Assembly: GCF_963506605.1 (NCBI RefSeq) | Contig: NC_083288.1 | Coordinates: forward strand, 49,290,001 to 49,354,000 | Length of the DNA stretch: 64,000 bases | Origin: Zootoca vivipara | Lineage: Eukaryota | Direction: 5' to 3' | In this document: positions 13,135-13,269 of the stretch, one piece after another | Layout: each line of letters starts with the position of its first letter | Position numbering within the stretch: position 1 is the first letter of the stretch | Made by a program: the position numbers and the translations under genes | Notes under the pieces: model-generated | The model's database searches: none | What the model was told of the DNA's origin: nothing | What the model saw: the letters and a program-made list of their open reading frames with translations, nothing else

Positions 13135-13159
13135 TAATACAAACTCTAGGGAGCTTAGT

Positions 13160-13252
13160 AAAATAAAAAAATTCCTTCAGTAGCACCTTAAAGACCAACT
13201 AAGTTTTTATTTTGGTATGAGCTTTCGTGTGCATGCACACTTCTTCAGATAC
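13160..13252 (-). mobile_element. 93-bp Penelope mini-insertion consisting of hammerhead + pLTR tail
   Basis: TSD ctagggagcttagt (13146-13159, 13253-13266); insert begins (on - strand) at hammerhead stem I. Confidence 0.9.
13215..13252 (-). ncRNA. Minimal hammerhead ribozyme motif, intact core
   Basis: Identical to 3916-3953. Confidence 0.8.
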
Positions 13253-13269
13253 CTAGGGAGCTTAGTTCT

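Follow-up and report, generated by a model that had tools for sequence, protein, structure and literature searches.

A histone gene cluster with a polymorphic insertion

The window analysed here is a 64,000-nt stretch of the Zootoca vivipara genome (contig NC_083288.1), a retroelement-rich vertebrate histone and tRNA gene cluster in which the histone genes are interspersed with tRNA genes. Over its full length (1–64000), it carries two H2B genes, one H3, one H4 and a broken H1-like frame. A search of the 64 kb for four H2A motifs found none of them. Upstream of one of the H2B genes lies a 93-bp insert on the minus strand (13160–13252). The features that concern us are the following, where +1 is the first base of the insert in element orientation (13252).

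3858–5151, minus strand: longer 5′-truncated copy of the same family, with the ORF end including GIY-YIG, a full pLTR with TATA-like box and an inverted arm with long tail; it shows the sequence upstream of +1
13146–13159, no strand: target-site duplication, copy at the element's 3′ end; present as a single copy in the empty allele
13160–13252, minus strand: 93-bp stub of a Neptune-type Penelope-like element (PLE), pLTR-end bases +1 to +93 (hammerhead and short tail); identical to 3861–3953 and to the ORF-bearing tandem loci L073 and L074
13160–13214, minus strand: pLTR remainder to the short tail end, a putative internal RT start site, as suggested by tail-length counts and by two start sites in another lizard PLE (PMC11167929)
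13215–13252, minus strand: minimal type I hammerhead; stem I of 4 bp (13249–13252 with 13215–13218), core 13242–13248, bulged A, stem II 13227–13240, palindromic 2-nt stem III
13253–13266, no strand: target-site duplication, copy at the element's 5′ end; the G preceding +1 is the base at 13253, the last of this copy in element orientation
13274–13819, plus strand: H2B promoter elements and H2B ORF, not part of the insertion; CCAAT at 13274 and 13337, octamer at 13368, TATA-like box at 13384, ORF 13439–13819

The 14-mers on either side of the insert match at 14 of 14 positions and no extension is possible. The 3′ border of the insert is ambiguous by three bases: the parent element itself continues with the first three bases (in element orientation) of the duplication. 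Duplications of at least 8 bp occurred in 9 of 600 mismatched flank pairs that served as a chance control. The empty allele was found in one of three other DNA data sets (X2, X3 and X7): in X3, 13145 is joined to 13253, with 107 bases skipped and 14 fitting both sides, at a depth equal to that of the unique flank (17.3). X7 carries the insert. A paralogous empty site in the same assembly was rejected: the genome holds the right flank of the insertion only once, and the promoter of the other H2B is a different one. The insertion is thus genuine, young and polymorphic, bears a 14-bp duplication and is missing from at least one other individual.

A sequence-only reading of this DNA had described a 93-bp insert with a perfect 14-bp target-site duplication, beginning exactly at the first base of hammerhead stem I and lying antisense to H2B, about 190 bp upstream of its ATG. 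The exact duplication and the empty allele bear out the first of these statements; +1 is indeed base 1 of the 4-bp stem I, and the end of the antisense insert is 186 bp ahead of the H2B ATG (13439). The same reading let the insert run through the pLTR tail, which is correct as far as the short tail end, where the insert stops; a further tail extension of ~37 nt is absent. The location "inside the H2B promoter" is true only marginally: the insert lies 8 bp from the most distal CCAAT box, but upstream of all core elements, and these are intact (CCAAT boxes at −165 and −102, both oriented toward H2B, octamer at −71 and TATA-like box at −55). On its left, the duplication adjoins a MITE-like high-copy repeat with inverted ends (12927–13137), relatives of which occur at 28396–28637 and 39146–39417.

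The parent Penelope-like element

The 93-bp insert also matches nine other pieces within the window, and the pLTR of the truncated element (3858–3953) is 100% identical to the insert region over 96 bp. Together with the next three bases, the insert is an exact substring of L073 and L074, though not of L089. Its tail 25-mer has 21,012 exact matches in the 1.44-Gb genome. When a 431-bp piece of the ORF was searched for, 40 of 40 scored matches were 100% identical, some of them in tandem with a spacing of ~3.0 kb; in the tandems, the next ORF begins immediately after hammerhead and tail. The single ORF (frame taken from L073) specifies an RT (RVT_1, E 5e-11) and, at the C terminus, a GIY-YIG domain (E 5e-5), and in its translation a C-x4-C-xx-C linker precedes the endonuclease; a CX2-5CxxC linker at this place defines Neptune/Nematis (PMC8557442). 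The name Neptune-type used here is provisional, being based on the linker and the vertebrate host.

The insert matches, identically, the pLTR end of active ~3-kb tandem PLEs, and it is a promoterless stub of this abundant element. The earlier claim of mobilisation by the Penelope RT/GIY-YIG machinery was right. Taken by itself, the insertion is unremarkable, a polymorphic stub with thousands of counterparts. The tandem arrangement, the optional tail and the inverted arms are those of EN+ PLEs. With the solo and 5′-truncated pLTRs of Neptune/Nematis type (PMC8557442, PMC3846280), the family shares a pLTR with an optional 30–40-bp tail, duplications of variable length, a frequent inverted arm and a parent ORF with RT, CX4CxxC linker and C-terminal GIY-YIG. 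Earlier work has described pLTRs, both truncated and solo, that carry tails, duplications and minimal hammerheads. Among 99 sampled copies, 49 are without and 50 with the long tail.

The hammerhead at the front of the insert

The hammerhead was recognised by eye from the description of minimal hammerheads in PMC4209133: the core boxes, stems I and II and a palindromic stem III are all present, and the cut is predicted between 13219 and 13218, i.e., after +34. Rfam did not detect it in a scan of the whole window or in a relaxed local scan. Stems I and II form when a 44-nt piece is folded by itself (z −2.6) but are not the favoured fold of the full 93 nt (z 0.12). The 4-bp stem I, the bulged base before stem II and the palindromic 15.2–16.2 pair are shared with the minimal hammerheads of metazoan pLTRs, which are mostly dispersed single motifs and for which cleavage and circularisation have been proposed as the source of templates (PMC4209133). 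Unlike that model of cut, circularised templates, the stubs described here read as derived from RNA uncut at this ribozyme. A lone minimal hammerhead in a stub would be expected not to self-cleave, and may owe its presence there solely to its place at the very front of the transcript.

On a divergent transcript of the H2B promoter, the insert would lie in sense orientation with the distal CCAAT box only 8 bp away, and it could be imagined to act on H2B by cutting or terminating that transcript. We find this scarcely credible: the insertion is polymorphic and very young, the 21,012 tail copies make an insertion near some promoter expected, a single minimal hammerhead gave no cleavage (PMC4209133), and the window lacks the H2A motif. 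The position beside H2B is likely incidental. The sequence-only reading had the insert oriented for transcription by the divergent arm of the H2B promoter, where H2A normally lies. This idea is unsupported and not needed, though not refuted: none of the four H2A motifs occurs in the window, both CCAAT boxes are directed at H2B, and RNA run X21 has zero reads over 13278–13500, the promoter and the H2B start.

Genome-wide 5′ ends peak at +1

In a local sample of 99 copies, 39 reach at least 120 bases upstream of +1, 16 begin at −119 to −9, 16 at −8 to −1, two at +1, 13 at +2 to +9, 12 at +10 to +33, none at +34 to +36 and one later, which is a broad cluster near +1 and not a spike. The sampled region, the first 3.2 Mb of contig 1, holds more long copies than is average for the genome, and older families are missed by the sample's anchor; the class that begins at +1 is under-represented in it. 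The 5′ ends were, therefore, counted over the whole genome with exact sequence patterns.

Genome-wide, 12,119 copies have the native T before +1 (exact pattern) and 3,733 have another base there (pattern filtered at −8); in 3,167 copies, the base directly ahead of +1 is a G that is not native. Breaks at +2 were found in 1,495 copies, and breaks at +3 in 1,078, in a pattern requiring two more bases. In hand tallies of the first 100 listed matches each, a G stands ahead of the break in 73 of 100 at +1 versus 23 of 100 at +3 (Fisher p 1.4e-12). It is thus the G class that makes up the surplus at +1. The sequence-only reading had predicted that the 5′ breakpoints would be non-uniform with a peak at a ribozyme boundary, and this has come true, with 3,167 copies at +1 against 1,495 at +2 and 1,078 at +3. 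An Inr-like A three bases upstream of stem I was rejected as the main start: a G before −3 occurs in 89 copies.

The ribozyme cut is not where the peak lies. The pattern for starts at the cut had 327 matches; 39 of the first 100 listed are true breaks, eight of them with palindromic joints, and the rest are substitutions, giving an estimate of ~130 copies. At a control base, there were 165 matches, 42 of the first 100 listed being true, or ~70 copies by the same estimate. Starts at the cut are thus less than twofold above the control base, and a 5′-end peak there was rejected. The patterns for cut site and control (+33 and +35) cover the younger families only, matched by 33 of 80 G-class copies; in a fair comparison restricted to younger families, ~1,300 starts at +1 stand against ~130 at the cut, a difference of about tenfold.

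Anatomy of the copies with an extra G

The structure of G-class copies was examined at 80 of the first 100 listed places, namely all but two of the first 82. Upstream of +1, an inverted arm is present in 37 of the 80 and absent from 43, and 26 of these 43 are flanked by duplications of 8–16 bp. Seven of the 26 have, between the duplication and +1, one G that the target lacks; in eight, the G falls within the duplication or a microhomology, which is the type of junction seen in the window copy; the other 11 have a filler of 2–8 bases ending in G. The G of the window copy belongs to the target, and this copy by itself, therefore, offers no evidence of a cap. C is nearly absent before the G (1 of 73 listed rows, hand tally), which could reflect a G derived from the target, or CpG decay, just as readily as the addition of a G. 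The 3′ ends of the 26 copies are of two fixed kinds: 15 have the short tail (ending at about +86 to +103) and 11 the long one.

Upstream of the stub, a TATA-like octamer begins at −31 from +1 in 57 of 72 long copies, with spacers that differ among subfamilies; 29 of the 57 matches are one young sequence, whose box is not a perfect consensus. A 3′ splice site before stem I (at −2) was rejected as the origin of the common 5′ end: the upstream sequence is variable, there is no fixed exon, and the youngest subfamily is without the AG.

The peak coincides to the base with the boundary of a stem, and the extra G is just what is needed to lengthen stem I by one pair. A structure-determined end would account for both: cDNAs stopping near +1 would snap back via stem I complementarity, with templated addition of one or more bases; alternatively, a folded or protein-bound ribozyme would fix the 5′ end of a longer RNA. 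Joints of the fold-back kind are indeed seen at the 3′ strand of stem I (4 of the first 100 listed cut-site rows), and two of 18 junctions with added bases fit a longer snap-back. Snap-back, however, predicts a run of T before the G, and a single G (7 of 18) and unrelated fillers dominate. Stem I is only 4 bp long, its 3′ strand is already copied when the RT reaches +1, it is not part of the favoured fold in the whole 93 nt, and the TATA-like box at −31 is left unexplained. We consider such an origin unlikely. The sequence-only reading had offered a structure-determined truncation as its alternative; the peak at the stem I boundary speaks for it, but it is the weaker rival, since a G class at TATA-box distance fits a transcription start better.

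The RNA may also end at +1 with a G that is a non-templated base added by the RT, or with an end that is processed rather than primary. All the genomic counts are equally compatible with this, and 2–8-base fillers are common (11 of 26). It is nevertheless improbable in our estimate: the strong G bias is confined to +1 (73 versus 23 of 100 listed), and the spacing of the TATA-like box is that of a primary start rather than of a processed end.

Proposed run-off at a capped RNA start

We propose that the stub was made by an RT that started at an internal tail site of the element's own uncut RNA and ran off its capped 5′ end after ~93 bases, and we put the probability of this reading at roughly 0.65. 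Transcription would start at +1, so that stem I begins at the transcription start. The RT, primed on the target, would begin at +93 and copy the uncut sense RNA up to the cap; the extra G would be the copied cap or a base added at the end. The endonuclease would make a staggered cut 14 bp apart, and fill-in would yield the duplication; in the window copy, the extra base would pair with the G already present in the target. Copies that reach farther upstream would derive from the second pLTR of a tandem read-through RNA.

Whether the thousands of stubs as a class are integrated strong-stop-like cDNAs, primed at a tail site within the first 130 bases of capped, uncut sense mRNA, is a matter on which we are evenly divided. 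If they are, the genome itself would place the transcription start on the hammerhead's first base, and long copies would need the second pLTR of a read-through RNA or a template jump. Retroviral strong-stop DNA is likewise a short cDNA that extends from an internal priming site to the 5′ end of the RNA; it is tRNA-primed and not integrated, and differs in both respects from the stubs.

The proposed priming has a counterpart in the Poseidon element PAc of Anolis carolinensis, where the RT starts internally at two sites bounding the tail, cutting and extension take place on both strands, and the main substrate is RNA that has not been cut (PMC11167929). The two internal start sites, the uncut template and a ribozyme near the ORF start are points of likeness; PAc belongs to a different clade, and in the parts of that paper considered there is neither a map of RNA 5′ ends nor a description of stubs with an extra G. 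In L1, an extra G marks the 5′ junctions of capped full-length copies and is attributed to the mRNA cap (PMC11702581). There, the G identifies full-length copies; here, it would identify the shortest ones, because priming takes place near the 5′ end. A rotifer pLTR has TATA and Inr-like motifs (PMC3846280), whereas Penelope of D. virilis has a TATA-less internal promoter (PMC2377424), so that the TATA layout is not universal among these elements. In the parts of PMC8557442 and PMC3846280 considered, short copies are treated as 5′ truncations; in the present family, most short copies share one 5′ base and an extra G, suggesting run-off at an RNA start. A rotifer Penelope-like paper proposed an antisense template; a G-marked sense end argues for a sense template and against that proposal.

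Several observations count against run-off at a cap. In three RNA runs (~6% of each was read), there is no peak of starts at +1; 86–97% of the mapped reads are host transcripts carrying stubs, and the depth over the ORF is at most 6. The 5′ ends of the local sample form a broad cluster, the extra G pairs in stem I, and there are the snap-back products described above. The scarcity of C before the G, the single young sequence behind 29 of the 57 TATA-like matches and the TATA-less promoter of D. virilis Penelope weigh on the same side. Stubs are abundant passengers in host RNA, where a small number of host transcripts each yield hundreds of reads whose loose ends are fixed (L073:2578–2710). A strand bias of ~4 to 1 in X21 was dismissed: X23 does not show it, and its source is a handful of host transcripts.

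The stub class bears on the question of which RNA is copied by Penelope-like elements: sense or antisense, capped or ribozyme-cut, linear or circular. The peak at a single base, marked by its G and set at TATA distance, and the few starts at the cut point to a capped, uncut, sense RNA, a reading from which exact predictions follow for CAGE and for the in vitro assay already established. If true, it would also account for the many single minimal hammerheads in these genomes with no need of a separate ribozyme element. A cap-like G at a fixed start of a Penelope-like element was not found in the literature searched; subscription papers and supplements were outside its scope and may hold such data.

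Relation to retrozymes and other non-autonomous elements

The sequence-only reading had offered a retrozyme-like unit as one of two origins for the insert. The stubs might then be a retrozyme-like or SINE-like non-autonomous family spreading from 93-bp master copies of its own. In favour of this, the genome can be expected to hold several hundred solo stubs of this kind, as 15 of the 80 sampled G-class copies are short-tailed and flanked by duplications, or ~600 when scaled to 3,167, and retrozymes derive from PLE pLTRs (bioRxiv 10.64898/2026.07.22.740005). The same work defines non-LTR retrozymes as tandem units with two or more hammerheads; the stub resembles them in its type I hammerhead, its derivation from a pLTR and its lack of coding capacity, but it is a monomer that does not begin at the cut. 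We found a single unit between duplications where a retrozyme would have tandem units, and a start 34 nt ahead of the cut where the unit boundaries would result from self-cleavage; starts at the cut, ~130 against ~70 at the control base in younger families, are not clearly above the control. Neither a promoter nor diagnostic sequence changes of its own, as a SINE-like family would have, are present in the stub: the TATA-like box lies outside it and its sequence equals the pLTR of the autonomous element. Moreover, stubs of several subfamilies of the parent occur, the young pattern being matched by 33 of 80, and both tail lengths are represented. Spreading from separate master copies is already largely refuted by these results, we give it very little credence, and the claim of a retrozyme-like unit did not hold.

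A true tandem derivative looks different from the stub. At L062 (2822–4616, plus strand), four head-to-tail units of 598 bp represent an internally deleted element in which hammerhead, tail and ORF start are fused to the ORF end and pLTR. By its layout, this array is a putative retrozyme-like tandem derivative with its own TATA-like box.

Inverted and duplicated copies

Within the window, the element at 3858–5151 is short-tailed at one end and long-tailed at the other, has a flanking repeat of ~15 bp and lies just downstream of the other H2B gene. A tiny fold-back stub at 12727–12785 consists of a minus-strand long-tail arm joined to a plus-strand short-tail arm, without the hammerhead. Two near-identical pLTR copies in the region 18500–20400 (18636–18731 and 19576–19670), with identical right flanks and beside a gap of 200 bases, may be a local duplication or an assembly artefact. 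In the first 3.2 Mb of contig 1, there are many head-to-head pairs with tail anchors 107–136 bp apart and both arms ending near +1; in the pairs that were read, usually one arm is long-tailed and the other short-tailed, as twin priming would give.
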